DNA of 62,259 nt from positions 1 through 62,259 of the IMG/VR virus record IMGVR_UViG_3300026068_000006; one strand, 5' to 3'. The stretch comes from a virus (taxonomy: Duplodnaviria; Caudoviricetes). Of the stretch, positions 17,309 to 33,799 are shown in pieces (the first letter of the stretch is position 1; each line of letters opens with the position of its first letter). The notes beneath the pieces were generated by a model. The model ran no database searches, was not told the DNA's origin, and saw only the letters and a program-made list of their open reading frames with translations. Made by a program: the position numbers and the translations under genes.

Positions 17309-17362
17309 TTTGGTTCCAAATTTTAGTCGCTCAGAGATGGGCGACTGAGATGTGTGACTAAA
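17309..17362 (+). repeat. 54-nt hairpin repeat A copy 1
   Basis: TTTGGTTCCA-AA-TTTTAGTCGCTCA-GAGA-TGGGCGACTGAGA-TG-TGTGACTAAA. Confidence 0.92.
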
Positions 17363-17384
17363 GATAGTAAACAGGAGAGACTAA

Positions 17385-17611
17385 AATGGTTTGAATAACT
17401 CGGCCTGAGACTGTACGCGGCAAGTAAGGGGGAACCCTATTGCAATTACGGTTGCATAATGACTTGCTGAACGATACTAGGATTGGGCAGATAAAAGAGG
17501 GGTAAACGGTGGTTAGCCCTACCATCGAGAGGCGATAGCATAGGGGGAGCGGATGGTCTACATGGTATACCAAGACGCTCAAAGATTTGTCGGAGTTAAA
17601 TTAAAACCATT
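17385..17611 (+). ncRNA. Structured ncRNA candidate (~227 nt)
   Basis: No long plus-strand ORF. Closing stem AATGGTTT/AAACCATT and TAACTC/GAGTTA; at least five internal helices. Confidence 0.45.
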
Positions 17612-17632
17612 AGCAGTTAGTTAGGGAAAAGA

Positions 17633-18058
17633 ATGAAAGCGATAAGATGGCTGGGAGCGTTCAGAAAAAGCAGTAAGTCTCTTAACGAGAGTTTGGTATA
17701 CGAACTCTCCCGGCCGGCTACTGATGAAGTAGCCGCCGAGCCACTTGATGACGAGCCGTCAGTAGTAGCCGCCAAAGTAGGGTTATTGATCGAGAAGGGC
17801 GCTATTAAAAAAGTTTTCAATGGTGACTGCTGGTCGGAATATGGAGATGATGGCCGTCTCTACAAGACCAGGAATCCCCGACGGGCCTGGTCAAACCATA
17901 GAGAGGTGTGGGCCTCTCCGCAGTATACGGGTATTGTTCTCAAGGGCAAGGACTTGCCCAAGAGGACAACAAAAACCATTATATGGGTAAGCGAACAGTA
18001 TGGCTTGCCCATATATAAACTGGACAAAAAAGGCGAGATGAAGCAGATCGTCCTTTAG
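17633..18058 (+). CDS. Hypothetical cassette protein
   Basis: 141 aa; the stop lies inside repeat A copy 2. Confidence 0.8.
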   Translation: MKAIRWLGAFRKSSKSLNESLVYELSRPATDEVAAEPLDDEPSVVAAKVGLLIEKGAIKKVFNGDCWSEYGDDGRLYKTRNPRRAWSNHREVWASPQYTGIVLKGKDLPKRTTKTIIWVSEQYGLPIYKLDKKGEMKQIVL

Positions 18059-18094
18059 TCGCTCAGAGATGGGCGATTGGGATGTGAGATTAAA
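18054..18094 (+). repeat. Hairpin repeat A copy 2 (left outer arm missing)
   Basis: TTTAGTCGCTCA-GAGA-TGGGCGATTGGGA-TG-TGAGATTAAA. Confidence 0.9.
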
Positions 18095-18129
18095 CAATTT
18101 ATGGCTCGTAAGGGCCAAAGGAGAACAAT

Positions 18130-18531
18130 ATGGAAAAAATTCATAAAAGTGATTTCCCGGCCGAATTTCGGTTGGATACAGATCATCCCGTGTTTGTCGC
18201 CCGCTTTGACAAATATATCAAGGTAAGCACTATCGCCCTCGTTGTAGCAGAATTACAAACTGGCATAAGACTGGTTTCATTACTTCTCCAAAACGTAAAA
18301 CCAGCCACTCCGGACCAGTTTGACGATCTAGTTAGACGCAGAGTTTGTCTTTTGGAGGCTATAAACAATGTGGATACATCTTGTTACAGGATGTATATAG
18401 ACCAGTTTACCAACGTGGAAGCTGCTCTAAACGCTTGCGAGTTCCCCGATGCGCAAGTGATCAGTTTTGTCAAAACCGGAGGGGGACATGACGAAGACCC
18501 TGTTCGTAGTGTACTTGTCATAAAGGTGTAG
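18130..18531 (+). CDS. Hypothetical cassette protein
   Basis: Bounded by repeat B and repeat A. Confidence 0.85.
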   Translation: MEKIHKSDFPAEFRLDTDHPVFVARFDKYIKVSTIALVVAELQTGIRLVSLLLQNVKPATPDQFDDLVRRRVCLLEAINNVDTSCYRMYIDQFTNVEAALNACEFPDAQVISFVKTGGGHDEDPVRSVLVIKV

Positions 18532-18533
18532 CG

Positions 18534-18588
18534 TTTAATCACAAATTTTAGTCGCTCATCCCCTGAGCGACTGAGATATGTGGTTAAA
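18534..18588 (+). repeat. Hairpin repeat A copy 3
   Basis: Loop TCCCC; compensatory changes in both stems. Confidence 0.92.
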
Positions 18589-18623
18589 TTATTAGTGCCC
18601 CGTAAGGGCCAAAGGAAAACAAG

Positions 18624-19460
18624 ATGAATGATGAACATTTGAAGATTTTGAAATCAGGCGTCACCACTTGGAACGCCTGGCGGAAAGCGAACCCGGATAT
18701 TATTCCGGATTTGAGTATGGCCAATCTGGAAGGGGCCGATCTGGGCAACGTCAATTTGACTAGAGTCTGTCTGGCCTGGGCCAATCTACGCGGGGCCAAT
18801 CTACGCGGCGCCAAATTGAATGGGGCCATTTTGGTCGGGGCTAATTTGCACGGCGCCAATTTGAGTGAGGCCAATTTGAGCGAGACCAATTTGGAAGGGG
18901 CCAATCTGAGGGAGGTTAATCTGGCCGAGGCCAAACTATATAGGGTCAATCTACGCAGGGCCAATTTAAGTGGGGCCAATTTAAGTGGGGCCAAGCTGAC
19001 CGATGCTGATTTGTGCGAGGCCAATTTGAGCGATACTGATTTGAGATCGGCCTATCTGTATAGGGCCGATCTGGGCGAGGCCGATCTTGGCCGGGCCGAC
19101 TTGACCAGAGCCAACTTGGGTAGGGCCAATTTGGTTGGGGCCAAGCTACACAGGGCCAAGCTACACAGGGCCAATCTGCGCAGGGCCAGCTTGAGCGAGG
19201 CCAATCTGCGCGAGGCCAACTTGAGCGAGGCCGATTTGAGTTGGGCCGATCTGGGCCAGGTTGACTTTAGTGCGGCCAAGTTAAGCGAGGTCAATTTGTA
19301 CAAGGCCGATTTGAGCGGGGCCAACTTGAGTAATGCCGATTTAAGCGGAGCCGATTTGAGTGTAGTCAATTTTGTCGGGACAAACTTAAGCGGGGCTAAT
19401 TTGACCGGCGTAAATTACTCTAATCAGACAATTTGGCCGGACGGGTTTACGTTAGTTTAG
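18624..19460 (+). CDS. Pentapeptide-repeat protein 1
   Basis: A(N/D)Lxx repeats; N-cap GVTTWNAWR; C-cap TIWPDGFTLV. Confidence 0.95.
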   Translation: MNDEHLKILKSGVTTWNAWRKANPDIIPDLSMANLEGADLGNVNLTRVCLAWANLRGANLRGAKLNGAILVGANLHGANLSEANLSETNLEGANLREVNLAEAKLYRVNLRRANLSGANLSGAKLTDADLCEANLSDTDLRSAYLYRADLGEADLGRADLTRANLGRANLVGAKLHRAKLHRANLRRASLSEANLREANLSEADLSWADLGQVDFSAAKLSEVNLYKADLSGANLSNADLSGADLSVVNFVGTNLSGANLTGVNYSNQTIWPDGFTLV

Positions 19461-19502
19461 TGGCAAAATTATTTATGGCCCACAAGGGCCGAAGGGGAAG
19501 AA

Positions 19503-19934
19503 ATGAACGTTGAACATTTGGAAAAATTGGAAGCGGGCATCACTACTTGGAACGCCTGGCGGCTAGAAAATTCGGGCGTTATCCCGGATTTGGCCGGGGC
19601 TGATCTGCGCGAGGTCGATCTGAGCGAGGTCGATCTGGAAGGGACTGATCTGATTGGGGCTAATCTACACAGGGCCAATCTGCGCAGGGCCGATCTGCGC
19701 GGGGCCAATTTGAATAAAGCCAATTTAACCTGGGCCAAATTGGAAGGAGCGGACCTGAGCTGGGCCAACCTTAGCAACGCTGATTTAAGTGGAGCCAATT
19801 TGGACGGTGCCAATTTGTACAGGGCTGATCTGCGCGGGGCCAATCTGCGTAGAGCCGACTTAAACGGGGCCAATTTGACCGGCGTAAATCATTCTACTCG
19901 GACAATTTGGCCAGATGGGTTCACGTTAGTTTAG
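19503..19934 (+). CDS. Pentapeptide-repeat protein 2
   Basis: Same caps as protein 1, fewer repeats. Confidence 0.95.
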   Translation: MNVEHLEKLEAGITTWNAWRLENSGVIPDLAGADLREVDLSEVDLEGTDLIGANLHRANLRRADLRGANLNKANLTWAKLEGADLSWANLSNADLSGANLDGANLYRADLRGANLRRADLNGANLTGVNHSTRTIWPDGFTLV

Positions 19935-19980
19935 CCTTAAAATTATTTATGGCCCATTAGGGTCAAAGGAATAAAGAATA

Positions 19981-20301
19981 ATGAAAAAAATAGATAGGGC
20001 GCGCAAAGAGACTGAAAGTCTGGCCCGCTTTTTGGAAAAGCGAGAATGGATTAACGCAGACAAATTGCCTCTTGTCTTCGAGGAGGCAGCCGATACAATA
20101 GCGAAAATTGAATTTTTCGCTATTACTAATACGATAGCAAAACTGGAGAAATATTTAGCGGAGGCCCGTGGCTGGGCCGAAAATAAACAGACTGGCATGA
20201 ATGGTCAACCACTCAGGATAAATAAAAAAGAACAGGAAAAAGCCAGAGCAGAAGCGAATAGGATTGAAAGAACTATCGCTAAACTCAGGGAGCTTATATG
20301 A
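19981..20301 (+). CDS. Hypothetical helical protein
   Basis: Starts behind repeat B. Confidence 0.8.
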   Translation: MKKIDRARKETESLARFLEKREWINADKLPLVFEEAADTIAKIEFFAITNTIAKLEKYLAEARGWAENKQTGMNGQPLRINKKEQEKARAEANRIERTIAKLRELI

Positions 20302-20525
20302 TATGGCAGCACAACCGTGAAAGAGGGCGTGGGCGTATACATCTAGTCACATCGGACGGCCGGTTGTTTTGTACTAATCGACAAATTGCCCAGCCTCTTT
20401 TGTGGTCTAAAATAGATCATGTCAATAGCATTTTTTTTAGAAATTGGGCTTGTAGAAAATGCTTGTCCAAGTATTTAATAGGTCCACAAGGGCCGAAGGA
20501 GCAAAATGAACACCGAACATTATAA
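20298..20525 (+). CDS. Hypothetical Zn-binding protein
   Basis: IH...LFC...ACRKC, same pattern as 17024; ATGA overlap. Confidence 0.65.
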   Translation: MIWQHNRERGRGRIHLVTSDGRLFCTNRQIAQPLLWSKIDHVNSIFFRNWACRKCLSKYLIGPQGPKEQNEHRTL

Positions 20526-21465
20526 CGTTTTAAGGTCTGGCATAGGAGTTTGGAACGCCTGGCGACGGGCCAATCCACATATAGCCCCGGATTTGAGCGA
20601 GGCGGATTTGAGCGAGGTTGATCTGACCAGGGCTGATTTGCGTTGGGCCAAGTTGCACGGGGCCAATCTGAGCGAGGCCAATCTAGCTGACGCCAATCTG
20701 AGCGACACCGATCTTAGCTTCGCCAATCTTGATTTGGCCAAGCTACACAGGGCCAATCTGCGTAAGGCCGATTTGTTCAGGGCCAATCTACGCAGAGCCG
20801 ATTTGAGCGAGGCCAATTTGTTCAGAGCCAACTTACACGGGGCCGATCTGCATGAAGCCATTTTACACAGGGCCATTTTGCACGAATCCAACCTTAGTGA
20901 GGCAGATTTGACCGGAGTTGATTTAAGCGAGGCTGGTATCAGGGCCAACTTAAAAAGGGCCGATTTGTACAAAGCTGATTTAAGCGAGGCTGACCTGAGT
21001 GGGGCTATTCTTATCGAGACCGATATAATTGAGACCAATTTGTACAAGGCAAATTTGAGTAAAGCGGAATTGTGTGGGGCTGATTTACGCAGAGCCGGAT
21101 TGTCTGGCGCCGACTTGCACAAAGCCAACTTGTTTCAAGTCAACCTGACCGAGGCTGATTTGGGCGGGGCCAATCTAAGTGATGTTGACTTGGGCGGGGC
21201 CAACTTGAGTAATGCCAATCTAAACAGGGCCAATTTAAGCAGGGCCAATCTAACCGGGACGAACTTAAGCGGGGTTAAAGGTATCGTTGTCTCTCTTGAT
21301 CAGCACGGGCATACACTGGTCAGTTGGCAGCATGGCGAGGCTGTAGGTTTTACGGCCGGCTGTCACTCTTTTGCTACCGCCAGAGAAGCGATAATTTACT
21401 GGGAAGTGGCCGACTGTTCGTATTTAGAATTCATAGATTTCCACCTTAAATGTTGGCTAGATTAA
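20506..21465 (+). CDS. Pentapeptide-repeat protein 3 with an alternative C-terminal domain (DUF5758-like)
   Basis: Repeats followed by GHTLVSWQHGEAVGFTAGCHSF. Confidence 0.93.
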   Translation: MNTEHYNVLRSGIGVWNAWRRANPHIAPDLSEADLSEVDLTRADLRWAKLHGANLSEANLADANLSDTDLSFANLDLAKLHRANLRKADLFRANLRRADLSEANLFRANLHGADLHEAILHRAILHESNLSEADLTGVDLSEAGIRANLKRADLYKADLSEADLSGAILIETDIIETNLYKANLSKAELCGADLRRAGLSGADLHKANLFQVNLTEADLGGANLSDVDLGGANLSNANLNRANLSRANLTGTNLSGVKGIVVSLDQHGHTLVSWQHGEAVGFTAGCHSFATAREAIIYWEVADCSYLEFIDFHLKCWLD

Positions 21466-21523
21466 AATATCGTAAATAATGTCCTTGCCCTATTGACATT
21501 ATTTACGATATGGTATATAATAG
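21461..21523 (+). promoter_or_regulatory. Repeated promoter P copy 2
   Basis: Perfect 17-bp inverted repeat 21467-21483 / 21495-21511; TTGACA 21493, TATAAT 21516. Confidence 0.92.
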
Positions 21524-21558
21524 AACTAGAAGTTAATTATTATTAAACAGGTCACAAA

Positions 21559-21792
21559 ATGAAACTTACCCCAAGTCAACTGAAGGCAATAGACGAGCAG
21601 AAACGGATTATTAAGCTGGTTCATCCAGATGCGGAATTCACGATCTGGAAACCAGCAAAAACAGATTTGACCAGACTGATTGCTGTCTGGCGGGCGAAAA
21701 ACCCGTTAGGCAGAACCATAAGCCAGTCGCAGGCTTGGACAGTAGGAAAAAGGGGTAAACTGAGCGACATTGCGACAGCGGTGACGCGATGA
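21559..21792 (+). CDS. Hypothetical protein
   Basis: First ORF after promoter P2. Confidence 0.7.
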   Translation: MKLTPSQLKAIDEQKRIIKLVHPDAEFTIWKPAKTDLTRLIAVWRAKNPLGRTISQSQAWTVGKRGKLSDIATAVTR

Positions 21793-21936
21793 ATATTGAT
21801 ACAAAGGTGCGTTTTTTGCGATTCTGAGCATTGCCGCTTCGTTCGCCGTCATAACCCGCCTATTGGGATTATACGGCGCGGTTGGATTTATTTTGTTCGC
21901 AACCGTTTTGTTATTGGGCGTTTTTAGGGAGATACT

Positions 21937-22815
21937 GTGATCAAAAAGGGGGACATTCGCATAATAGCTCCCCGATTGGCCAGTCAATCAGTGAACTGTA
22001 TCGTGACCAGCCCCCCATATTGGGGATTGCGCGATTATGGACATGCTGACCAAATTGGGCTTGAGCCAACGCCGGAAGCATACGTGCAAACAATGGTCGG
22101 CGTCTTTGGGGAATTGCATCGCGTACTGAGAGATGACGGCACGCTGTGGCTAAATCTGGGAGATACGTTTGTCGCCAAAAACCTTGTTGGCATCCCCTGG
22201 CGGGTGGCCCTGGCCTTGCAAGCGGATGGGTGGTATCTGCGGAGCGATATTATATGGAGTAAGCCCAATTGTATGCCGGAGAGCGTAACAGACCGCCCTA
22301 CAAAAGCTCACGAATATTTATTTCTATTGAGCAAGACAGAATCGTATTACTACGACCAGGATGCGATCAGAGAGCCTAATTCAATGAATCGGCCCCGCAA
22401 AAATCGAAACAATTCGACTACCTTTAAGCGCAACGGCTCAAAGCGCGAACAAACAATACCGGGGCAAGGTTACGGCACCCATCGGCCGGATAGAAGCGAT
22501 ACGGACTACAATCCACTTGGCCGAAATAAACGGTCCGTATGGGAAGTCAGTCTGAGAGCCTATGGCGGTGCGCATTTCGCAGTCTTTCCGCCTGATTTAA
22601 TCGAGCCGTGTATCCTGGCCGGTTGTCCTCCTGGGGGGATCGTGCTTGATCCATTTTTTGGCAGTGGCACAGTAGGACAGGTGGCCATAAAAACCGGTCG
22701 CAATTGGCTTGGAATTGAAATAAACTCGGATTATATCAAGCTGGCAGAGGAACGGATAAACGGTACCCAATTGCCTTTAATAGTACCCGGTTCTGAGGCG
22801 AACAAGCTGTGCTAA
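21937..22815 (+). CDS. DNA N4-C/N6-A methyltransferase (beta class)
   Basis: VTSPPYW, IIWSKPNCMP, HFAVFP, LDPFFGSGT. Confidence 0.93.
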   Translation: MIKKGDIRIIAPRLASQSVNCIVTSPPYWGLRDYGHADQIGLEPTPEAYVQTMVGVFGELHRVLRDDGTLWLNLGDTFVAKNLVGIPWRVALALQADGWYLRSDIIWSKPNCMPESVTDRPTKAHEYLFLLSKTESYYYDQDAIREPNSMNRPRKNRNNSTTFKRNGSKREQTIPGQGYGTHRPDRSDTDYNPLGRNKRSVWEVSLRAYGGAHFAVFPPDLIEPCILAGCPPGGIVLDPFFGSGTVGQVAIKTGRNWLGIEINSDYIKLAEERINGTQLPLIVPGSEANKLC

Positions 22816-22831
22816 ATCTGTAGAACGCCAG

Positions 22832-22892
22832 ATTAAAATATCGTAAATATTGTCTTTTCCCTATTGACAATATTTACGAACTGGTATATAAT
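22832..22892 (+). promoter_or_regulatory. Repeated promoter P copy 3
   Basis: 14-bp inverted repeat 22841-22854 / 22866-22879; TTGACA 22864, TATAAT 22887. Confidence 0.92.
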
Positions 22893-22944
22893 ATATTTAT
22901 AAATAGATTGATTAACTGGCTCTAATGGGCCAAAGGAGAACAAG

Positions 22945-23178
22945 ATGGATAACATAAGAAAAGAACAAGAAAAATTTATGGTTCGGCTGGAAAAAATCCT
23001 CACCCGAATGGGAGAGGATGACTTATTAGATTACCGGGCGAACGAGGCCGTTTGGATCGCCCAGTATGGGCCAGATGATCATCTGGCGATCCGGGCGAAC
23101 GAGGCCGAAACCCGAGGCACGGGCCACTTCCATCATCTAAAATGGCGGAAGGACCGAGAAGAGCTACCGAAGGTTTAG
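22945..23178 (+). CDS. Hypothetical cassette protein (starts MDNIR)
   Basis: Repeat B start; stop supplied by repeat A. Confidence 0.8.
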   Translation: MDNIRKEQEKFMVRLEKILTRMGEDDLLDYRANEAVWIAQYGPDDHLAIRANEAETRGTGHFHHLKWRKDREELPKV

Positions 23179-23227
23179 CCCCAAGTTTTAGCCGCCCAGT
23201 CTTGGGCGGCTAAGATGTGAGACTAAA
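23174..23227 (+). repeat. Hairpin repeat A copy 4
   Basis: Loop GTCT. Confidence 0.93.
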
Positions 23228-23264
23228 TTATTAGCTGGCCCGTGATGGGCCAAAGGAGAACAAG

Positions 23265-23516
23265 ATGGATAACATAAGATTAACAATGGTTTACAATCGG
23301 CAGATAAGCGATATGCCGGGATCGACCGGCACCATCCGTATTGTTTGCGGGCACTGTATTGACCAAGATCCAATTGCGACTCTTGGGTTCGATGTTGAAT
23401 GTGAGCTTTTAGATGGTAGACCTTGGCGAGAAGTTGTTGCCAAGAAGTTGGGGGAAGACCCCAGGTGGCGGTATCGGCCCCATACAAACTGTCGGCACAC
23501 CAAAGGGTTCGTTTAG
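23265..23516 (+). CDS. Hypothetical cassette protein (starts MDNIR)
   Basis: Repeat B start; stop supplied by repeat A. Confidence 0.8.
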   Translation: MDNIRLTMVYNRQISDMPGSTGTIRIVCGHCIDQDPIATLGFDVECELLDGRPWREVVAKKLGEDPRWRYRPHTNCRHTKGFV

Positions 23517-23565
23517 CCCCAAGTTTTAGCCGCCCAAGACTGGGCGGCTAAGATGTGAGACTAAA
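23512..23565 (+). repeat. Hairpin repeat A copy 5
   Basis: Identical to copy 4 except the loop, AGAC. Confidence 0.93.
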
Positions 23566-23601
23566 CAATTATCAGGCCCAAGCGGGCAGAAGGAGAATAA
23601 A

Positions 23602-23796
23602 ATGAAAGTCGAAGAATGTATCAAGAATTTAATTGCCGACACAAGCGCCGGGGGGAAAGGGTACGCCAATGCGTGCCAATTGTGGAGGGGTTTTGGTGAT
23701 ATGGGCCAGCGACCCTACGGCTGGTGGCTAAAGCCGTTTGGAGAAACAGCCCGTTTTATTGGGCGAAGCTGGAAAGAGATCAAGGCCGATTGGTAA
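23602..23796 (+). CDS. Hypothetical cassette protein
   Basis: Repeat B start. Confidence 0.8.
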   Translation: MKVEECIKNLIADTSAGGKGYANACQLWRGFGDMGQRPYGWWLKPFGETARFIGRSWKEIKADW

Positions 23797-23801
23797 TTTT
23801 G

Positions 23802-23866
23802 TGAGGGGGTTAATCTCCCCTCCTGCCCGGTAGCCTCAGAGCCAGGCAGAAGCGGGGATTACAACC
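23802..23866 (+). ncRNA. Structured intergenic RNA candidate with a possible pseudoknot
   Basis: Bulged stem GGTT-AATC-CCC-CTGCC / GGCAG-GGGG-ATT-AACC. Loop CCTCA is complementary to upstream TGAGG. Confidence 0.4.
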
Positions 23867-23904
23867 GCTAATTAACAGGTCCATAAGGGCCGAAGGAAAT
23901 AAAA

Positions 23905-24210
23905 ATGGCAACGCAAAAACTAACTCGAAGGTCACGTAAATTTGGATGGGGATATTCATTTACTCCTATCCGAAACACCTGTGACATTACCCGGCCATCG
24001 AAGCCGGATTATGAAGGGACGGTTAGACAGGTATTAAATTGCATCTCGTCTGACCGTACATGGAACGCCAATCGGTCAGCGTTCTCAAGTGCGCAATTTT
24101 TCTTGGACGGAAAGCCTATTTATTTTATAAGCGAATTTGATCTTGACGATCTTTTGGACGGAAGGACTGACGAGATCGAAGTGGCCTATATAAAGGCCGA
24201 AGGAGAATAA
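23905..24210 (+). CDS. Hypothetical cassette protein
   Basis: Repeat B start. Confidence 0.8.
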   Translation: MATQKLTRRSRKFGWGYSFTPIRNTCDITRPSKPDYEGTVRQVLNCISSDRTWNANRSAFSSAQFFLDGKPIYFISEFDLDDLLDGRTDEIEVAYIKAEGE

Positions 24211-24211
24211 G

Positions 24212-24487
24212 ATGAACAAATTTGTAAAAATGAGTAGAGAAGAACGCCGTTCCACTCGTTTTAATGGGGACGAAATCCTGATCGGAGAGGTCGATGGTAA
24301 CATTGTTACTGTCGGTCCAGACGCTGACGGGACAGGGACGGCGGTGTTTATTCAGATCGGATCATTGCCGGCCGTGAATTGTTTTGGGAACGAAACTGGT
24401 CGCTCCCTCTTGGAAGAATGGAGAGCCGGAAATCTGTGGGTAGAACAAGAGGGCTACCATAGAGGTAGTACGTTTGCGGGCATATAA
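24212..24487 (+). CDS. Hypothetical cassette protein
   Basis: Repeat B-like start. Confidence 0.8.
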   Translation: MNKFVKMSREERRSTRFNGDEILIGEVDGNIVTVGPDADGTGTAVFIQIGSLPAVNCFGNETGRSLLEEWRAGNLWVEQEGYHRGSTFAGI

Positions 24488-24581
24488 GCCCAATTTCTAG
24501 GGGCATGCCATAGCAGCATGCTCCCCGCCGGCGCAGCGGGGACGTAAGCCATAGCCGTCCTGAGCAAGACGTTAAAAGGCT

Positions 24582-24637
24582 TCTCTAAACCACTGATACC
24601 CGGTCCCAAGTCCGGGATGTGAGAAGTGCGAGGGGAT
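24582..24637 (+). ncRNA. Twister ribozyme-like motif (type P1, imperfect)
   Basis: UAA..CACU..CCGGUCCCAAGUCCGG..AGUG.GAGGG follows the order of twister core elements. P1 and the T2 pseudoknot are weak. Confidence 0.45.
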
Positions 24638-24675
24638 AAATTTAACTGGCCTGTGATGGGCCGAAGGAGAATGAA

Positions 24676-24948
24676 ATGAACAGTGAACAGAAAAGACATG
24701 CGGAAGCGGTCGTGGCCCGCATAGATGGGGCCAACATTCTGCTGGTCGTCAGCGCGATCACAGATCAGTCGCCGGCTGGCGTCGTCGCAGCCCGCATAGT
24801 TGAGGCCGACATTCTGCTAGATCGACTGTTTTTACAGTCGATCAGAAGTATGTCTGGATCAGCAGACGGGACTCATCTGCGCTATGCTGATCTGAGCGGG
24901 GCCAGCAATTCCGGGAAATCTCGGATGGGCCGAAGGAGAATAAAATGA
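24676..24948 (+). CDS. Hypothetical protein, degenerate pentapeptide-repeat relic
   Basis: Internal 29-nt duplication; LRYADLSGA fragment. Confidence 0.55.
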   Translation: MNSEQKRHAEAVVARIDGANILLVVSAITDQSPAGVVAARIVEADILLDRLFLQSIRSMSGSADGTHLRYADLSGASNSGKSRMGRRRIK

Positions 24949-25355
24949 CCGAGATGATTATTACAAGAAGCAAATCGGGATTACCCACCGTCACGGAATG
25001 TGGCGGGGGGATGAAAAACACCGGGTACGCTACGATTGTTTGTGGCGCAACCGGTAAGCGGTTAAAACCCCTTTTCGTCCCAAAAGGGCGCTCCAACGGA
25101 GATCACGCGATCTTCGTTGTGATACCCGGCGTCACCCACCTCGTAGGCGCTTCTGTCTCTCGCCAAAAAGAGATCGCTACTATAGAAAAGATTGTCGCCA
25201 TAGATGAGGACGACAATCTTCTCACGGAGATTGTCGGCGAATATGAAAATGGGGATTATGGTAATGTCCCCAATAAATTCAAAGCGGCTGTTCAGGCCGC
25301 AATAAAGAAGGGGCAGTGTTACCACTGCCGAGAAGCGCATTACTTACAAGATTAA
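24945..25355 (+). CDS. Hypothetical phage protein with C-terminal CYHCREAHY
   Basis: Repeat B-type RBS; followed by repeat A. Confidence 0.85.
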   Translation: MTEMIITRSKSGLPTVTECGGGMKNTGYATIVCGATGKRLKPLFVPKGRSNGDHAIFVVIPGVTHLVGASVSRQKEIATIEKIVAIDEDDNLLTEIVGEYENGDYGNVPNKFKAAVQAAIKKGQCYHCREAHYLQD

Positions 25356-25362
25356 GTTTCGA

Positions 25363-25416
25363 TTTAGTCCCAAGTTTCAGTCGCTCAACCCTGGGCGGCT
25401 GAGATGTGTGACTAAA
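25363..25416 (+). repeat. Hairpin repeat A copy 6
   Basis: Loop ACCC. Confidence 0.92.
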
Positions 25417-25435
25417 TCAATTGAAAGGATAAAAA

Positions 25436-25837: not shown

Positions 25838-26682
25838 ATTATGAAATTTTATTAAAATCAGGCGCCGAAAATTGGAACGCCTGGCGGAAGAAAAATTATC
25901 AGATTATTCCTGACCTACGTGGGGCCAATTTGGTTGGGGCCAATCTGGAAGGGACTTATCTGATTGGGGTCAATCTGAGCGAGGCCAACTTGATTGAAGC
26001 TAATTTGTGTAGGTCTTATCTGGCTGAAGTGAATCTAAAAAAAGCCAGCTTGAAAAGAGCCGATTTGGCCGGAGCTTATTTGTATGGGGCCGATCTGAGC
26101 GAGGCCGACCTACGTGGGGCCAATTTGGTCGGGGCCGATCTGTATGGGGCCAACTTGAGTAAAACCGATCTGATTAGGGCCAATTTGCATGAGGCCGATC
26201 TGCATGGGTCCAATTTGCATGAGGCCAACCTGTACAAAGCCGATTTGGGCGAGGCTGATCTAACCGGGTCTAATCTAACAAATGCCAATCTATACGGGGC
26301 CAATCTGGAAAGGGCCAATTTGCATCTGACCAATTTGCCCATGGCCAATCTGATCGGGACCAATCTGGCCATGGCTGATCTGAGTAGTGCCAATCTGACC
26401 GCGGCCAAGCTGCACGAGGCCGATCTGTCCGGGGCTAACTTGAGCGGGGCCAAGATGGTCAGGGTTAAAGGCATTTTTTATACCTCCTTTGATTTACGGG
26501 GATGGACTTTGGTCAGTTGGCGACACAATGAAGTGGTGGGTTTTACGGCCGGTTGCTATTCTTTTACCACCCCGGATGAGGCAAGAGCCCATTGGGGAGC
26601 GCCCGGATATCCAGACAAGAATCGTGGCCAAATGTATCTGGAATGCATCGAATTCCACCTGGCTCGTTGGCAAGAGATTTAA
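25834..26682 (+). CDS. Pentapeptide-repeat protein 4 with the alternative C-terminal domain
   Basis: ATGA overlap; C-terminal GWTLVSWRHNEVVGFTAGCYSF is shared with protein 3. Confidence 0.93.
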   Translation: MNYEILLKSGAENWNAWRKKNYQIIPDLRGANLVGANLEGTYLIGVNLSEANLIEANLCRSYLAEVNLKKASLKRADLAGAYLYGADLSEADLRGANLVGADLYGANLSKTDLIRANLHEADLHGSNLHEANLYKADLGEADLTGSNLTNANLYGANLERANLHLTNLPMANLIGTNLAMADLSSANLTAAKLHEADLSGANLSGAKMVRVKGIFYTSFDLRGWTLVSWRHNEVVGFTAGCYSFTTPDEARAHWGAPGYPDKNRGQMYLECIEFHLARWQEI

Positions 26683-26732
26683 TCCCGGCTTTCAGTCGCT
26701 CATCCTCTGGGCGATTGAGATGTGAGATTAAA
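26678..26732 (+). repeat. Hairpin repeat A copy 7
   Basis: Loop TCCTC; supplies the TAA stop. Confidence 0.92.
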
Positions 26733-26743
26733 TAGAACAAAAC

Positions 26744-26806
26744 ATTAAAATATCGTAAATAATTGTCTTATCCTATTGACAATATTTACGAACTGGTATA
26801 CAATAG
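26744..26806 (+). promoter_or_regulatory. Repeated promoter P copy 4
   Basis: TTGACA 26776-26781, 17 bp, TACAAT 26799-26804. Confidence 0.88.
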
Positions 26807-26845
26807 ACTTATAAATAGATTATATTAGATTGAGGAGAGTAAAAG

Positions 26846-27283
26846 ATGAAGATAAAAGAATTTACAAAAATGATAGAGAAGGCAATCGAGAAGCACAGGA
26901 TCAACCAACAGTCGTCAGATGAATACGCTGAATATAGCTATTACGGTCTGAGATTTGAAAACAAAGACCGGGAAGTTGGCGAGATGTGCGGTAATTCTCA
27001 TCACAATTTCGAGCGGGAAGATGAGAGGGAGTTTCCCGAATACGGAACTGATGAGTACGAAGAGATGATTGAGCTGGATGGCACATCAGCTTGGTACATC
27101 TCAGACGCTGGAAAATTTGACCGAAAGGTCTATACCGGCGAATGGCAAGAAGAAGATAGCACTCTGATGGTTGTCACAGACCATTGTTACATTATCGGTG
27201 GCCAAACGGAAGGCTCACACGACAGTCCTGATGCCGGGGAAATTCTAATTCAGGATGCAGTAGTAGTTGAAAAGTTATTCTAA
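26846..27283 (+). CDS. Acidic hypothetical protein
   Basis: RBS GAGGAG; D/E-rich. Confidence 0.85.
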   Translation: MKIKEFTKMIEKAIEKHRINQQSSDEYAEYSYYGLRFENKDREVGEMCGNSHHNFEREDEREFPEYGTDEYEEMIELDGTSAWYISDAGKFDRKVYTGEWQEEDSTLMVVTDHCYIIGGQTEGSHDSPDAGEILIQDAVVVEKLF

Positions 27284-27345
27284 TCTCGAAACCGCCTTCG
27301 GGCGGTCAGCCGGAATTGGCCCACTGGCTCTGATGAGAGAGGCCA
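27284..27345 (+). ncRNA. Hammerhead ribozyme, type II
   Basis: TCTC-GAAA-CCGCC(TTCG)GGCGG-TC^-AGCCGG(loop)CTGGCT-CTGATGA-GAGA. Loop TGGCC pairs with the 3' GGCCA. Confidence 0.95.
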
Positions 27346-27380
27346 TATAAACAAGGTCCGTAAGGGCCGAAGGAGATAGA

Positions 27381-27521
27381 ATGAATAATTTTGATATGGA
27401 AATCTGGCTTGATGACTCGGATTTGGAAGAGCAATTGCGTCAACTTCAAGAGATCGAAGATGGCGCAGAGGATGTAGAGCATCCGGATACTCAATATTCG
27501 GATTATCCTTGGGCAGTTTAA
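27381..27521 (+). CDS. Very acidic small protein (46 aa), not in the ORF track
   Basis: Repeat B start; stop in repeat A; MNNFDMEIWLDDSDLEEQ... Confidence 0.75.
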   Translation: MNNFDMEIWLDDSDLEEQLRQLQEIEDGAEDVEHPDTQYSDYPWAV

Positions 27522-27570
27522 TTCCAGCTTTTAGTCGCTCAGGGATGGGCGACTGAGATGTGTGATTAAA
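27517..27570 (+). repeat. Hairpin repeat A copy 8
   Basis: Loop GGGA. Confidence 0.92.
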
Positions 27571-27604
27571 TTATTAAGGTCCGCAAGGGCCGAAGGAGAA
27601 CAAG

Positions 27605-29420: not shown

Positions 29421-29451
29421 TAATTTTTCTATTATTTTTTAAGGAGAAGCT

Positions 29452-29814: not shown

Positions 29815-30030
29815 AAGACATTTGGTCCGTTGAACCACCCGCTGCCAAATGGGGAACTTGTTCGGAAAAGATGTTGGTAGTTCGGCAATGTCATTATGCT
29901 GGCGCTGATTATGATCTTGCCTGGTACGATCACGAAACCGAGCAGTGGCGTAATAACTATGGACCTATCAAGGACGTTATTTCGTGGATGGTTCCGCCGA
30001 GTCATCCAAAAGTAGTGAGGTGAGAAAACT

Positions 30031-30312: not shown

Positions 30313-30314
30313 CT

Positions 30315-30599: not shown

Positions 30600-30619
30600 C
30601 TATTAAAAGGATTAAACTG

Positions 30620-30820
30620 ATGAAACCAAGTAGAATTGACAAGGATTTTTACGGCTGTCCCAAGTGTGGCTTTCCGCTCAATGTCCAAAATGACAATGAG
30701 CTGGAGTACACGGGCGGCTTAACCTGCGCTTGTGGAGTTTTTGTATCGTTACCTGACATCCCGGTTCCACCGAAGTCAAAATACAGAAAGTTTTACGAAA
30801 CCAAATCTAAGGAGAGTTAA
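30620..30820 (+). CDS. Zn-ribbon protein
   Basis: CPKCG...CACG. Confidence 0.65.
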   Translation: MKPSRIDKDFYGCPKCGFPLNVQNDNELEYTGGLTCACGVFVSLPDIPVPPKSKYRKFYETKSKES

Positions 30821-30822
30821 CC

Positions 30823-31554
30823 GTGACAGAACAACAGCCGCAGTCTAAAAACCCAATACCGAAACCAGTCTATCAGGCCATTGCTGCGGCTGTTGTTGCT
30901 GGTGGTAGTTCGTTTGTTTTTGGCGTCCCTATCGAGTACGTTCCCCGTGTCGCTGTGGCCGGGATCGTCTACAGCGTCTTCCAATCTTACTCGGACATCC
31001 GCTATCAAGTATCGCCCAGAGTCAGACGGCCACGAGGCCGGCAAATCGCTGTCAACACCGTCAACGGTAGCCGCAAAATCGATATGGAGTATAGTGTTTC
31101 TCAAGGTGGTTATATAGTCCGGGAAACCTACGCTCAAGCCATTAAACGCTTTGTTTTCGGTAAGCCCCAGGCTGACAAGCGTCAACCTGAAATTAAAGTC
31201 AATAGACCAGAGGCACTTGATGATTTCATCTTTCGCTCTCACTATCAAGGCCAGGTGGTCGAATTGGCCGAGACACACGTTAGACTATTCTTGCAATCTG
31301 CCTGGCGCAACCGAGCGAACGGTAAGGGGCTAAGTCAAAGACGGTGGGTTAGGGAGCGATCACAGCGGCCGGCATGGTACCAAGAGTTGTCGCCTGTCTG
31401 GTACTACGGCATGAGTATGTTACTGTGGGATGCACAGAAGGCTTTGAAACGCCAACTGGTGATCGAAACGGGCTATCAGTGGTACGCCCTTAACGTTGAG
31501 CCAAGGCAGGCGATGGGATTGTTAAAGTGGTATGAGTCAATCAAGCGGCAATGA
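30823..31554 (+). CDS. Membrane-associated hypothetical protein
   Basis: RBS AAGGAG; two N-terminal hydrophobic segments. Confidence 0.7.
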
Positions 31555-32360
31555 AAAACGATAGTGATACGCTACAGATATATTTTGCAGACATGAGGCA
31601 GATAGGAGGCGCTCTTTTATCGCTTGATGAGGAAATCCAACTGGCCAAACTAATAGAGGTGGGCGGTCTGGAAGGTGATCGGGCCAGAGCCAGTCTTATA
31701 GAAGCGAATCTACGTCTTGTGGTTAGTATCGCCAATAAATATTGGACGCCCGACATTCCCTTTGGTGACTTGATACAGGAGGGGAATATCGGGTTAATGA
31801 TAGCTGTTGACAAATACGATTGGCGGCGGGGTGTATATTTTAGCACCTATGCCACCTGGTGGATTAGACAGGCTATCAGACAGGCTATTGCGATGCGATT
31901 CATGATACGCATCCCAACTCATATATGGGACAACACGATCAAGATAAAGCGGGCGATAGATTGTTATACCGGCGAATTACCATCAGTGATTGCAGCAAAG
32001 GCGGGTCTTAGTGAGGCCGAAGTTATTAAAGGGTTGGAATGTCTGAGACTGATGAGTGTATCATCTATAGATAATAACAATCTACATGCGCTTTTATCTG
32101 ATGAGAGCCAAGAGGTTTACATTGAGGCGAATGAATTGAACAAGTTTATTTTGGACATCTTGGAGACTTTGGGCGAAAGGGAGGCCAAGATAGTAGAAAT
32201 GCGTTATGGACTTAGGGACGGAATCCCCCATACCCTGGGAGAAATTGGAAAGGTGATGAGCCTGACTCTGGAACGTGTCAGACAAATTGAGAAAAAGGCG
32301 TTAGAAGAACTTCGACTTGACGTAAAATTAAAAAACTATTTAGGAGACAAAAATGACTAA
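31551..32360 (+). CDS. RNA polymerase sigma-70 family factor (RpoD/RpoS-like)
   Basis: [42 protein letters not shown]...[11 protein letters not shown]. Confidence 0.95.
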
Positions 32361-32547
32361 TAAGATCGTAGTGTACGTACCGAAAGAATTGGCAAACCGT
32401 ACTACCCAAGAGAAGGCGGTTCAGGCGCTTGAACTGCTTTGCGGGAAGCAGATATCTGACGATATTTATGAAACGGGTAGAGTAGACTGGTTTATCAAAA
32501 CAGAATTATATCGTCTTGGTTTAAGACGAAAGGGCGGAAACGAATGA
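32353..32547 (+). CDS. Small hypothetical protein
   Basis: RBS AGGAG; coupled to neighbours. Confidence 0.65.
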
Positions 32548-33089
32548 GTGCTTTTGTGAGAGTTGCAGACAAGTTACGCGATAGTAAATTTATTATCCCG
32601 ATTACCCTGGCAGTTATGTTGGGGATAATTATCAGTGCTTTTGCCTTTTACGAGGATTATCAATCTTCATTACATGGTTATGAGATGTTGCCTACTCGGA
32701 AATCAGGCGAGGAAGTGATACAGATGATTGCCTTGCTCCCTCAAGTGGGCCAGATTATCTTCTTCTACCTGTTCGGGAATAGCGTGGAGGTGTTGCCAAA
32801 TGGCAGACGGCGCATCAATTACATCTACTTTATTGTCGCTTCTTTTTTGCTCTTTTTTGATTTGGGGACTGACATGTATTACAAAGCTTCGGGCGCTTTT
32901 TGGCCTGTCTGGATTATTGCTTTCGTAGAGTCTATCACCGTCTTTACCATTGGCAGCGAGATGCTCCTAACCGCCTCACTGGGTCTTTTCTTTGAGTTGG
33001 CCCCGGAAGCGATCAAGCAACTGGGCCAGTTTTTTGGAGCGTTTTTGGGTGAGGATGAGGACGCTCCGACCATTGCGTCACGGAGGTAA
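32544..33089 (+). CDS. Multi-pass membrane protein
   Basis: About four hydrophobic segments. Confidence 0.75.
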   Translation: MSAFVRVADKLRDSKFIIPITLAVMLGIIISAFAFYEDYQSSLHGYEMLPTRKSGEEVIQMIALLPQVGQIIFFYLFGNSVEVLPNGRRRINYIYFIVASFLLFFDLGTDMYYKASGAFWPVWIIAFVESITVFTIGSEMLLTASLGLFFELAPEAIKQLGQFFGAFLGEDEDAPTIASRR

Positions 33090-33090
33090 A

Positions 33091-33750
33091 ATGAACACCG
33101 AACATTTGGAAACCTTAAAAGCGGGCGTCGCTACTTGGAACAATTGGCGGATGAAACACCGAGAAGTTATCCCGGACTTGGCCGGGGCCAATCTGGTTGG
33201 GGCCAATCTGGACGGGGCCGACTTGTGTGCGGCCGACTTGTGTGCGGCCGACTTGCGCGGGGCTAACCTGACCAGGGCCAAGCTGGTTGGGGCCAAGCTG
33301 CACGAGGCCGATCTGTCCGGGGCCGACTTGAGCGTGGCCAATCTACACAGGGCCTATCTGCGCGGGGCTAATTTGAGTGGGGCTAACCTGAACCAAGCCG
33401 ATCTGCGTGGGGCCAATCTGGTCAGGGCCAATTTGGCCCAAGCCAATCTGATCAGGGCCAAGTTTGGTGGGGCCAACCTGAACGGGGCCAAGCTGCGCCA
33501 GGCCGATTTGAGCGGGACCGACTTGACCAAGGCCGATTTACATCAAGCCGACCTAAGCAGCGCTAACCTGCGCGGGGCCAATCTAATTGCGGCCGGCTTG
33601 ACCGGTGCTAACCTGCACGAGGCCAAGCTGAATGGGGCCAATTTGAGTGACGCCAATTTGGACTGGGCCAAGCTGGACGGGGCCGACTTGACCGGGGCCA
33701 GTCACGATGACCAAACAATTTGGCCGGACGGGTTCACGCCCGCCGTTTAA
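33091..33750 (+). CDS. Pentapeptide-repeat protein 5
   Basis: RBS GGAGG; MNTEHLETLKAGVATWNNWR; C-cap TIWPDGFTPAV. Confidence 0.95.
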   Translation: MNTEHLETLKAGVATWNNWRMKHREVIPDLAGANLVGANLDGADLCAADLCAADLRGANLTRAKLVGAKLHEADLSGADLSVANLHRAYLRGANLSGANLNQADLRGANLVRANLAQANLIRAKFGGANLNGAKLRQADLSGTDLTKADLHQADLSSANLRGANLIAAGLTGANLHEAKLNGANLSDANLDWAKLDGADLTGASHDDQTIWPDGFTPAV

Positions 33751-33799
33751 TCTCAAGTTTCAGCCGTTCAGGGATGGGCGGCTGAGATGTGTGACGGGG
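33746..33799 (+). repeat. Hairpin repeat A copy 9
   Basis: Loop GGGA; right end degenerate; supplies the TAA stop. Confidence 0.88.

Follow-up and report, generated by a model that had tools for sequence, protein, structure and literature searches.

A repeated intercistronic hairpin in an uncultivated phage

The window analyzed here is the complete 62-kb record of an uncultivated tailed phage (IMG/VR record IMGVR_UViG_3300026068_000006; 62,259 nt). Between 17.3 and 33.8 kb, it carries nine copies of a 54-base repeat, here called hairpin A, all on the + strand. Eight of these are full copies and one lacks the 5ʹ outer arm, and the rest of the record is empty of the element (Table 1). Across the whole window, a degenerate pattern for hairpin A gave nine matches on the + strand, none on the − strand, and none with a backwards control; the matches begin at the tabulated starts of the eight full copies and, for the truncated copy, at 18054. 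A covariance model with the eight full copies as input, run unfiltered across the whole window, regained its inputs at 64.9 to 81 bits and the truncated copy at 27.1 bits. It also scored weaker mirror images on the − strand, and all remaining matches had E values of at least 0.95. Both searches thus confirmed the nine positions of the original prediction. Its uniform 10-bp outer stem required amendment for the truncated copy, for the insertion-bearing copy at 33746, and for the two copies with C-A mismatches.

No copy of hairpin A was present in 185,579 species genomes, and no relative was found in any collection searched. Within the phage, the truncated copy would fit a loss of 13 nt between two TTTAGTC direct repeats, one in the outer arm and one in the inner. 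Sequence comparison also identified a probable centre-deleted remnant at 19456, which lies after a pentapeptide-repeat gene and immediately 5ʹ of another small repeated hairpin, hairpin B.

Table 1 Hairpin A copies, remnants, and associated RNA elements in the window
Feature	Position	Strand	Score or basis	Energy (kcal/mol); z	Context
Hairpin A, full	17309..17362	+	76.9 bits	−26.8; −6.3	Adjoins stop of ORF 17024–17308; downstream dead RBS and 2-codon ORF, then ~270 nt non-coding
Hairpin A, truncated (inner stem and 3ʹ outer arm only)	18043..18094	+	27.1 bits	−19; −2.9	Inner-arm TTTAG is stop of ORF 17633–18058
Hairpin A, full, 5-nt loop	18534..18587	+	72.1 bits	−31.9; −10.3	Sole copy with columns 12/52 paired
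Hairpin A, full	23174..23227	+	81 bits		Outer stem with C-A mismatches; outer TTTAG is stop of ORF 22945–23178
Hairpin A, full, tandem paralogue of 23174	23512..23565	+	79.4 bits		Outer-stem C-A mismatches; outer TTTAG is stop of ORF 23265–23516
Hairpin A, full	25363..25416	+	79.8 bits	−34.7; −8.3	8 nt after upstream stop; next RBS directly downstream, no hairpin B
Hairpin A, full, 5-nt loop	26678..26731	+	68.9 bits		TTTAA is stop of pentapeptide-repeat ORF 25819–26682; only copy with near-consensus promoter downstream (26776–26804)
Hairpin A, full	27517..27570	+	78.9 bits		TTTAA is stop of ORF 27381–27521; then hairpin B and RBS
Hairpin A, 13-nt insertion in 3ʹ outer arm	33746..33812	+	64.9 bits		TTTAA is stop of pentapeptide-repeat ORF ending 33750
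Probable centre-deleted hairpin A remnant (GTTTAG..AAAATTATT)	19456..19476	+	Sequence comparison
Probable second centre-deleted remnant, paralogue of 19456 remnant	19930..19950	+	Sequence comparison
Hairpin B, 12 full copies	span 18103..27597	+			GGYCC-4/5 nt, mostly GNRA-GGGCC, then RAAGGAG and ATG; starts 18103, 18597, 19477, 19951, 20481, 22918, 23237, 23575, 23878, 24648, 27355, 27578
Type II hammerhead ribozyme	27284..27347	+	38.3 bits (Rfam gathering score 37)
Twister-like motif, sub-threshold	24582..24638	+	Twister-P5 21.3 bits (threshold 37.6); twister-P1 18.9 (threshold 67.2), E 0.007

Fold and selected strand

Hairpin A folds into 23 pairs and two conserved mismatches, giving 25 stacked positions, or roughly two helical turns. 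In the eight-copy alignment, pairing at the 23 pairs was 96.7%, versus 33.7 to 42.4% when partners were slid by one to three columns. Compensatory changes on both sides occurred at three pairs (GC↔AU at 9/55, UA↔CG at 20/44 and 23/41), and eight double-change cells were observed versus 3.5 ± 1.7 in shuffles, with none of 500 shuffles reaching eight. Of the five covariation measures, two did not exceed shuffles: how many pairs changed on both sides (137/500) and how many further pair types occurred (429/500). As no relative of hairpin A was found, the covariation draws on few, related sequences, all paralogous copies from one genome. On that alignment, the hairpin covaries as had been proposed.

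The non-Watson-Crick pairs first checked in the inner stem had been described as G-U on the + strand, and counting all 191 pair cells upheld this, with 154 Watson-Crick, 33 G-U, 2 A-C, and 2 other. G-U cells occupied twelve columns and A-C cells one (binomial p 0.003). This imbalance shows that it is the folded sense strand of hairpin A that is under selection. Folding energies of the nine copies on the + strand ranged from −19 to −34.7 kcal/mol, with z-scores of −2.9 to −10.3 versus shuffles. In seven of the nine, the + strand was favored over the − strand by 9–16 kcal/mol, and the − strand folded equally well or better in the other two (23174 and 23512).

A conserved irregularity interrupts the helix, though not as the 2x2 internal loop first described. 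Columns 15/49 are unpaired in all eight aligned copies and columns 12/52 in seven of eight, making two 1x1 mismatches with 2 bp between them. Position 16/48 is G-U or A-U in six of eight copies, the U18-G46 wobble is present in all nine, and the mismatch zone, 13–17 positions from the loop, reads 5ʹ-CCAAG opposite 5ʹ-UGUGW. Conserved non-canonical positions inside an otherwise covarying helix could be read, together with the wobble, by a phage or host RNA-binding protein such as a translational repressor or a factor for antitermination or stability, and many of the early ORFs have no known function. We regard such a binding site as quite improbable, as no candidate protein was identified, the terminal loops vary among copies, and nine sites all at cistron ends suit processing better than operator control.

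Gene ends and the composite unit

A stop codon lies no more than 10 nt from the start of all nine copies. In six copies, the upstream ORF stops within the TTTAG or TTTAA of the hairpin itself; this motif belongs to the outer arm in five and to the inner arm in one (18054), and four of these six ORFs end in GTT-stop (Val), as first described. The three other upstream ORFs stop no more than 10 nt before the hairpin. The donated stop codon is real, but shared 3ʹ ends of the genes explain it best, since paralogous pentapeptide-repeat genes end in GTT-TAG/TAA both with and without hairpin A.

The overlap had been likened to that of integron attC sites, imperfect palindromes that lie at the 3ʹ end of a gene cassette and may run into its stop codon; G-T pairs are also possible in single-stranded DNA. 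Nevertheless, a folded single-stranded DNA recombination site of this kind, or the target of an HUH/REP-type enzyme, is largely refuted and has next to no probability. The defining attC features examined here were absent: the boxes come in the reverse order, the helix lacks bulged or extrahelical bases, and the better folder is the sense strand rather than the bottom strand. The phage, searched in all six frames, yielded neither a tyrosine recombinase nor an HUH (Y1) transposase, and no recombinase was found among 60 phage proteins scanned.

Hairpins this stable at gene ends could also be terminators or attenuators lacking a U-tract, which we consider highly unlikely. A terminator scan classed none of the nine copies as terminator-like, the U-tract is absent from all, and in eight of nine the next ORF is reached without an intervening promoter-like site of at least 11/12. 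Because these eight precede genes without their own promoter and no copy has a U-tract, hairpin A is not a standard terminator, as originally stated. Operon ends in this genome instead have classic hairpin plus T-run terminators, at 16341–16375 and ~34535.

Hairpin A belongs to a repeated unit of ~125 nt found between unrelated small ORFs, in the order stop codon, hairpin A, AU-rich linker, small GNRA hairpin B, Shine-Dalgarno sequence, and ATG. Five copies of hairpin B sit 3ʹ of hairpin A across a linker of 8–14 nt (TAAATTATTAG and variants), and the linker-plus-B arrangement is absent at four of the nine hairpin A copies. The unit recalls the PeSLs of T4-type phages, which the available text describes as short composite regulatory cassettes between unrelated small ORFs (PMC4122927) and as likely sites at which plastic early regions recombine (PMC4122927, PMC2839356). 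A PeSL, however, combines a terminator stem-loop with an early promoter, whereas the hairpin A module combines a read-through hairpin with a hairpin-RBS and has no promoter. As a DNA-level module, A-linker-B-RBS would provide portable homology through which small accessory genes are swapped, duplicated, or lost, with any RNA role secondary. The tandem duplicates at 23174 and 23512, one with an inverted loop (AGAC at 23512 is the reverse complement of GTCT at 23174), the centre-deleted remnants, and the arm deletion between direct repeats would fit such exchange. Recombination homology needs no fold, though, and the 33:2 ratio of G-U to A-C with compensatory changes shows that a folded single strand is selected, making this an improbable account of the element. 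It is compatible with, rather than opposed to, the RNase III reading considered below.

REP/BIME elements of enterobacteria are imperfect palindromes without a U-tract that lie in operons near stop codons; in E. coli operons, REP elements stabilize upstream mRNA and affect translation if near a stop codon. Hairpin A shares the imperfect palindrome, the missing U-tract, and the position close to stop codons inside operons. REPs, however, are shorter, sit in chromosomes, and owe their spread to RAYT transposases, and hairpin A has a longer helix, no such transposase in the phage, and no chromosomal copies in the genome collection. Hairpin A could act similarly as a passive stabilizer, the uncut hairpin blocking 3ʹ-to-5ʹ exonucleases after an enzyme specific for single strands (RNase E, J, or Y) cuts the AU-rich linker between hairpins A and B, and its stop-codon site might tune translation termination of the upstream gene. 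The conserved linker between two stable hairpins suits this role in five of nine copies but not in the other four. Moreover, an exonuclease block requires neither a helix of 23–25 positions nor conserved mismatches, and a two-turn helix would by default be an expected RNase III substrate, according to the available text of PMC1540722. We therefore judge passive stabilization possible but unlikely.

A candidate RNase III-type processing site

Taking these sequence features together, we tentatively favor, with confidence a little short of even, an RNase III-type processing and 3ʹ-stabilizing site in polycistronic early mRNA. Hairpin A would be a cis-acting element of early polycistronic messages that folds in the sense transcript at the cistron end. 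We infer that transcription passes through the element and that the ~two-turn helix would be recognized and cleaved by an RNase III-class endoribonuclease specific for double strands; this enzyme would come from the host, as no RNase III gene is encoded by the phage. Within E. coli transcripts, intergenic regions are enriched for RNase III sites (PMC6212723). The mismatch zone would confine cutting to a single strand, the 3ʹ one being the most plausible; available accounts describe internal loops and mismatches that restrict RNase III to one strand, so that a protective 3ʹ hairpin remains (PMC1540722, PMC3867540). The upstream cistron would then retain the 13–14-bp inner hairpin as a 3ʹ block to exonucleases, and the downstream cistron would start a few nucleotides 5ʹ of hairpin B and the Shine-Dalgarno sequence. 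In this way, the module would convert one long transcript into units that are stable and translated separately. Mismatches as small as 1x1 might let RNase III cut both strands, destroying the protective hairpin, and the stable hairpin with its AU-rich linker would also be usable by a passive-barrier/RNase E scheme without RNase III. Of the two enzymes originally suggested, an RNase III type is supported by the sense-strand fold, two turns, mismatches, read-through position, and the hammerhead slot described below, and nothing specific points to Mini-III.

The T7 early region contains RNase III sites R0.3 to R1.3, of which R1.1 is the model substrate, and their internal loops are larger than 1x1. 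Both systems place several ~two-turn intercistronic hairpins on one early transcript, and in T7 the irregularity confines cleavage to a single strand, so that a 3ʹ hairpin survives as protection, as proposed for hairpin A. Hairpin A differs in having no sequence similarity to the T7 sites and, where those have a larger internal loop, two 1x1 mismatches; its copies are also much more alike in sequence, and six overlap the upstream stop codon. The RNase III sites of phage SP82 are mutually similar in sequence. They too are repeated hairpins in early mRNA, cut by host RNase III (PMC4838370), with sequences unrelated to hairpin A as far as the available text allows comparison.

The slot before hairpin B is held by hairpin A five times and elsewhere by the type II hammerhead or the twister-like motif, the hammerhead gap running stop, hammerhead, hairpin B, and RBS. 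Since hairpin A thus occupies a slot held elsewhere by a self-cleaving ribozyme, it most likely marks where long early mRNAs are cut and stabilized, and the outcome would equal that of the self-acting hammerhead in a neighboring gap. Bacterial and phage ribozymes have been proposed to process polycistronic RNAs, and several may flank genes within one transcript (PMC6765202, PMC3088659, available text). Intercistronic hammerhead and twister ribozymes of phages and prophages share with hairpin A their position and presumed polycistronic cutting, but hairpin A has no ribozyme core, and a protein enzyme would be needed.

Ribozyme clustering has been used, in the available text, for finding new ribozyme classes (PMC6765202), and hairpin A could itself be all or part of a new self-cleaving RNA, as were twister-sister, pistol, and hatchet beside hammerhead or twister. 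Besides the common slot, the P4 loop and following linker of the twister-like motif (TCCCAAGT..GATGTGAGA) resemble the outer arms of hairpin A. We nonetheless consider this very unlikely, given a nearly continuous helix broken only by two 1x1 mismatches, a variable loop, and no evident junction or pseudoknot; hairpin A also had no match among Rfam ribozyme families, twister-sister included. The phage has one hammerhead and one twister-like motif among its hairpin A copies. With the predicted hammerhead cleavage after GUC, the upstream RNA would likewise end in a 3ʹ stem-loop, CCGCC-UUCG-GGCGG.

Copies, fold and strand of hairpin A

Hairpin A, a 54-nt repeat, is present in nine copies on the + strand of the phage record (see table), and a degenerate pattern recovered all nine where the original prediction had placed them, with no match on the - strand and none for a backwards control. 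A covariance model made from eight copies and run unfiltered on both strands of the window scored those eight at 64.9-81 bits and the truncated copy at 18043-18094 at 27.1 bits; it also matched the - strand mirror images of the copies at weaker scores, and returned nothing further below E 0.95. Seven outer pairs open the consensus fold; two further pairs follow, flanked by mismatches at alignment columns 12/52 (outside) and 15/49 (inside), and then come an inner stem of 14 pairs and a terminal loop of 4-5 nt without conserved sequence. The first inner-stem pair, 16/48, is G-U or A-U in six of eight copies. The loop length is as originally described, but the 2x2 internal loop is better read as a pair of conserved 1x1 mismatches together with a wobble, with 15/49 unpaired in all eight copies and 12/52 in seven. 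In seven of the nine copies, 25 positions are stacked (23 pairs and 2 mismatches). Eight copies are full, among them 33746, which has a 13-nt insertion in the 3′ outer arm; 18054 is without the 5′ outer arm. In 18054, 13 nt appear to have been deleted between the TTTAGTC repeats that the outer and inner arms share. The outer stems of copies 23174 and 23512 contain C-A mismatches.

Features of the phage record, with coordinates in the window
Feature	Coordinates	Strand	Remarks
Hairpin A (n = 9)	17309, 18054, 18534, 23174, 23512, 25363, 26678, 27517, 33746	+	18054 is the truncated copy at 18043-18094
Hairpin B fused to RAAGGAG-N6-ATG (n = 12)	18103-27597	+	
Partial hairpin B copies	~24192, ~24927		within coding sequence
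Type II hammerhead ribozyme (Rfam RF02276)	27284-27347	+	38.3 bits against a gathering score of 37
Twister-like motif, candidate	24582-24638	+	below both Rfam thresholds
Three-hairpin gap	23797-23876 (~80 nt)	+	between a stop codon and hairpin B
Non-coding stretch (~270 nt)	17363-17632	+	3′ of the first hairpin A
Hairpins with T-runs at operon ends	16341-16375, ~34535		
Perfect or 11/12 sigma-70 consensus promoters (n = 6)	16436, 21493, 22864, 26776, 35866	+	perfect or near-perfect; drive the small-gene block
	35810	-	
Sigma-70 family factor	31551-32360	+	regions 1.2, 2 and 4 present
Pentapeptide-repeat paralogues (n = 5)	18624-21465, 25819-26682, 33091-33750		
Direct repeat at record ends	5-133, 62131-62259		129 nt, 99% identical

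Pairing held in 96.7% of 184 cells, compared with 33.7-42.4% when partners were slid by 1-3 columns, and + strand folding energies ranged from -19 to -34.7 kcal/mol (z -2.9 to -10.3). Two-sided changes at pairs 9/55, 20/44, and 23/41 amounted to 8 cells against 3.5 ± 1.7 in shuffles, and the covariation score was 0.270 against 0.217 ± 0.019, values that none of 500 shuffles reached. These two measures bore out the expected covariation, but neither the number of pairs with double changes (137/500) nor the further pair types (429/500) rose above the shuffles, and across eight related sequences we take the evidence from compensatory change to be modest. The repeat and its fold are real.

We counted pair cells over all nine copies, leaving out columns 5-9 of 33746, where the insertion displaces the partner, and using only the inner stem of 18054. 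Watson-Crick pairs filled 154 of 191 cells, G-U 33, A-C 2, and other combinations 2; G-U was found in 12 columns versus one for A-C (p 0.003), and the U18-G46 wobble in all nine copies. The - strand fold was 9-16 kcal/mol weaker in seven copies, and equal or better in 23174 and 23512. Such asymmetry between G-U and A-C is not expected of a palindrome kept only as double-stranded DNA; therefore, the folded sense strand is what is conserved, as had been proposed from the inner-stem G-U pairs. Because all flanking genes lie on this strand, RNA is the economical reading. That hairpin A is a protein operator seems to us quite improbable.

Hairpin A was found nowhere else. Three patterns in IMG/VR, one in the JGI metagenomes, and blastn against the GenBank phage collection (INPHARED) gave no copy beyond the record, and two patterns in a species-genome collection (185,579 species, one genome each) gave 0 and 3 matches, the latter being chance occurrences and not hairpins. 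These patterns require conserved inner-stem letters, the one with the three chance matches covers 4-nt loops only, and the collections may omit the window's own record. The covariance model found no copy over 188 fetched loci and six whole virus records, with none in 31 loci carrying the pattern of hairpin B (the small hairpin described below) and none in the loci that encode a related capsid-like protein, 77 from IMG/VR and 80 from metagenomes. Two of the 31 loci, with four matches each, proved to be unrelated GC-rich repeats. The proposed Rfam search also came back negative: no family of Rfam 15, ribozymes and CRISPR direct repeats included, matched any copy, either at the gathering score or, across 16000-36500, at E up to 5, and the twister-sister model gave no match to hairpin A at E up to 10. 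As no further copies or close relatives were found, the covariation evidence cannot at present be widened. We rejected an RNA anti-CRISPR or CRISPR-repeat mimic (no Rfam CRISPR-DR match, and an atypical 13-bp stem), as well as a REP/RAYT system, there being no Y1 (HUH) transposase (PF01797) in the phage record and no chromosomal copies among the species genomes.

An intercistronic module and its ribozyme counterparts

Laying out the intergenic gaps with a simple gene call revealed a module in the order stop codon, hairpin A, AU-rich linker of 8-14 nt (TAAATTATTAG and variants), hairpin B, RAAGGAG, about 6 bases, and ATG. Hairpin B is GGYCC, a 4-5-nt loop that is mostly GNRA, and GGGCC, and its 12 copies lie on the + strand only, at 18.1-27.6 kb. 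Fused to its ribosome-binding site (RBS) and start codon, it looks like a standard translation-start cassette and is possibly a 5′ stabilizer. On the 3′ side of hairpin A we found hairpin B in five cases, an immediately adjoining RBS in two, a promoter in one, and other sequence in one. The non-coding stretch following the first hairpin A starts with an operon-type RBS and ATG-GTT-TGA, a 2-codon ORF; it has no Rfam match and may be what is left of a gene, or else a structured RNA.

All nine copies are on the coding strand, and eight are flanked by co-oriented ORFs that no strong promoter or terminator separates; in eight, the next ORF follows without an intervening promoter-like site scoring at least 11/12. 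None of the nine was listed in a terminator scan, their tails being ACTAAATTATTAG-like with no U-tract, which upholds the earlier view that this is not a standard terminator and makes a terminator that dispenses with the U-tract highly unlikely. Operon ends in the region are instead classic hairpins with T-runs, so transcription would have to run through hairpin A.

Its TTTAG/TTTAA holds the stop codon of six of the nine upstream ORFs, four of them ending GTT-stop, as the original prediction had it; the other three ORFs stop 10 nt or less before the hairpin. The analogy then drawn, with attC sites that overlap cassette stops, did not stand. Among the pentapeptide-repeat paralogues that end GTT-TAG/TAA, some have the hairpin (26678, 33746) and others lack it (19456, 19930); the Val-stop overlap can therefore be put down to gene ends that paralogues have in common rather than to an attC-like design. 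The two hairpin-less ends retain both outermost ends of hairpin A, GTTTAG..TAAAATTATT, a configuration that fits central deletion of the palindrome. A mobile element (MITE), considered on account of these two hairpin-less ends, was rejected, since the hairpin-less sites keep these outermost ends, unlike an empty transposon target, and the flanks are inverted, not direct, repeats.

Such deletion derivatives, together with tandem duplicates and an identical module separating unrelated ORFs, suggest a PeSL-like role in which hairpin A would be portable homology for gene shuffling, a role compatible with one as RNA. So does the inverted loop of copies 23174 and 23512: GTCT at 23199-23202 and AGAC at 23537-23540 are reverse complements between identical arms, the hallmark of a palindrome whose spacer has flipped. 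Homology by itself leaves the G-U asymmetry unaccounted for, however, and we consider this role unlikely.

The place of hairpin A in the module is also taken by ribozymes. A type II hammerhead with both conserved cores present sits between the stop of ORF 26846-27283 and a hairpin B and RBS unit, just above the Rfam gathering score. Its loop I (UGGCC) and 3′ tail (GGCCA) may form a 5-bp pseudoknot, of a kind that PMC3088659 describes for type II hammerheads, and cleavage after GUC would leave a 3′ stem-loop, CCGCC-UUCG-GGCGG, on the upstream RNA. We detected a candidate twister-like motif in the gap separating ORF 24212-24487 from another hairpin B, at 21.3 bits with the Twister-P5 model (threshold 37.6; E 0.066 in 911 nt) and 18.9 bits with Twister-P1 (threshold 67.2; E 0.007 for the phage genome). 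In its P4 hairpin, CCGGUCCCAAGUCCGG, 15 of 16 positions agree with the family consensus. A further gap, of three hairpins, has no Rfam match at E up to 10, and the GUUAAU loop of its first hairpin may pair with AUUAAC near its 3′ end.

Hammerhead and twister ribozymes of bacteria are described as having common gene neighborhoods, near phage genes, and have been proposed to process polycistronic transcripts (PMC6765202); in a single prophage transcript, several hammerheads flanking genes were reported to cleave (PMC3088659). Our main argument is that, because ribozymes hold the same place, hairpin A would likewise cut or delimit RNA between cistrons. In this one phage, the same intergenic position has three kinds of occupant: a hammerhead, a twister-like motif, and a hairpin of the type that protein enzymes would cut. 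The role of bacterial and phage ribozymes of these classes is described as still largely open (PMC6765202), and their use alongside hairpin A offers a handle on the purpose of phage ribozymes. It makes testable the idea that these ribozymes are just one of several interchangeable means to cut and insulate cistrons in phage early mRNA.

RNase III-type processing and other readings

Our leading explanation, held tentatively, is that hairpin A is an intercistronic RNase III-type processing and 3′-stabilizing site in an early polycistronic mRNA. [quoted passage not shown] Internal loops or bulges can, according to PMC1540722 and PMC3867540, limit RNase III to one phosphodiester and so leave an exonuclease-protective 3′ hairpin. 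At the putative target, hairpin A keeps 1x1 mismatches at 12/52 and 15/49, along with the wobbles 16/48 and 18/46; the irregular zone, 13-17 positions from the loop, might restrict cutting to one strand. [quoted passage not shown] Given this fit (25 stacked positions, an irregular zone, kept mismatches, and a free loop), we propose that a host RNase III-class enzyme would make a single cut near columns 46-50. The inner hairpin would then cap the upstream cistron, and the downstream cistron would begin just before hairpin B and the RBS. The phage record has no RNase III gene, and none of 60 scanned phage proteins was a ribonuclease or recombinase.

Hairpin A could also be a passive, REP-like barrier, with a single-strand-specific RNase cutting the linker. 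This would account for the AU-rich linker but not for the helix length or the conserved mismatches, and we judge it a distinctly weaker possibility than RNase III-type processing.

The second proposal of the original prediction, a folded single-stranded DNA recombination site resembling attC, failed on box order, bulges, strand, and integrase. An attC site has inverse core sites in the order 5′-RYYYAAC (R″) ... GTTRRRY-3′ (R′); the copies reverse this, reading 5′-GTTTARY ... RAYTAAA-3′ with the GTT-like end 5′ and the AAC-like end 3′. The eight full copies have no bulges or other extrahelical bases, only symmetric 1x1 mismatches. The folded and selected strand of attC is the bottom one, antisense to the cassette ORFs, whereas the pair-cell counts and folding energies of hairpin A favor the sense strand. 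Tyrosine recombinase (PF00589) was absent from all six frames of the whole record, and the control was detected in 14 of 14 genomes. An attC-like site is thus the least probable of the readings considered.

Hairpin A has been kept alongside a hammerhead and a twister-like motif, and the latter shares TCCCAAGT..GATGTGAGA (P4 loop and linker) with the hairpin A outer arms. There is a slim chance that hairpin A, rather than serving RNase III, is a new and very small motif, self-cleaving or ribozyme-assisted, or else a target for an unrecognized phage-encoded endoribonuclease. It would then be an evolutionary derivative of, or a replacement for, a twister ribozyme within one phage genome. That it is itself a ribozyme of a new kind has a slimmer chance still.

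An ordinary RNase III site and nothing more would be a tidy, unsurprising addition to the T7/SP82 class. Synthetic insulator parts for genetic circuits combine a ribozyme or an RNase site with a downstream hairpin exposing the RBS, and the unit of hairpin A, linker, hairpin B, and RBS resembles a natural counterpart of them.

The phage and its early region

The 62,259-base virus record has a completeness rating of 100% in IMG/VR. It is classed as linear, and the direct repeat at its ends indicates terminal redundancy or a circular assembly. Almost all long ORFs are on the + strand. Helicases, a large terminase, a capsid-like virion protein, and a tape measure are encoded, and the phage is therefore a tailed phage of siphovirus type. 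It is nearly an orphan: its large terminase has no close relative (best identity 29%), nor does its sigma factor in IMG/VR, and relatives of the capsid-like protein were found at 73% identity only on ~2-kb contigs and at 69% on a 22-kb fragment, all without the early region. Three distant complete relatives contained no repeated long hairpins or comparable hairpin family, and Rfam ribozymes were absent from two of the three and from eight other loci.

The record further encodes a sigma-70 family factor, several DNA methylases, a TET-associated glycosyltransferase, a dCTP-deaminase-like protein, and DUF5131. Some restriction-type palindromes are avoided across the window (CGATCG, 1 found against 13 expected; GGATCC, CTGCAG, and TCTAGA, none found against 13-16 expected), and GGCC is over-represented (483 against 187). 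This avoidance and excess, together with the methylases, glycosyltransferase, dCTP-deaminase-like protein, and DUF5131, suggest modified DNA. Protein atlas comparison of the sigma factor gave mixed phyla; CGATCG avoidance and the pentapeptide-repeat genes are a hint, short of establishing it, of a cyanobacterial host.

The small-gene block spans 16.4-35.9 kb. Pentapeptide-repeat genes are uncommon cargo in a phage early region, and the five paralogues here have a common N-terminal segment of ~124 nt (repeat family D5). Two of the six consensus promoters form a divergent pair at 35.8 kb. Those at 21493, 22864, and 26776 lie within 14-17-nt perfect inverted repeats across the -35 box (e.g., 21467-21483 / 21495-21511), which may be operators.
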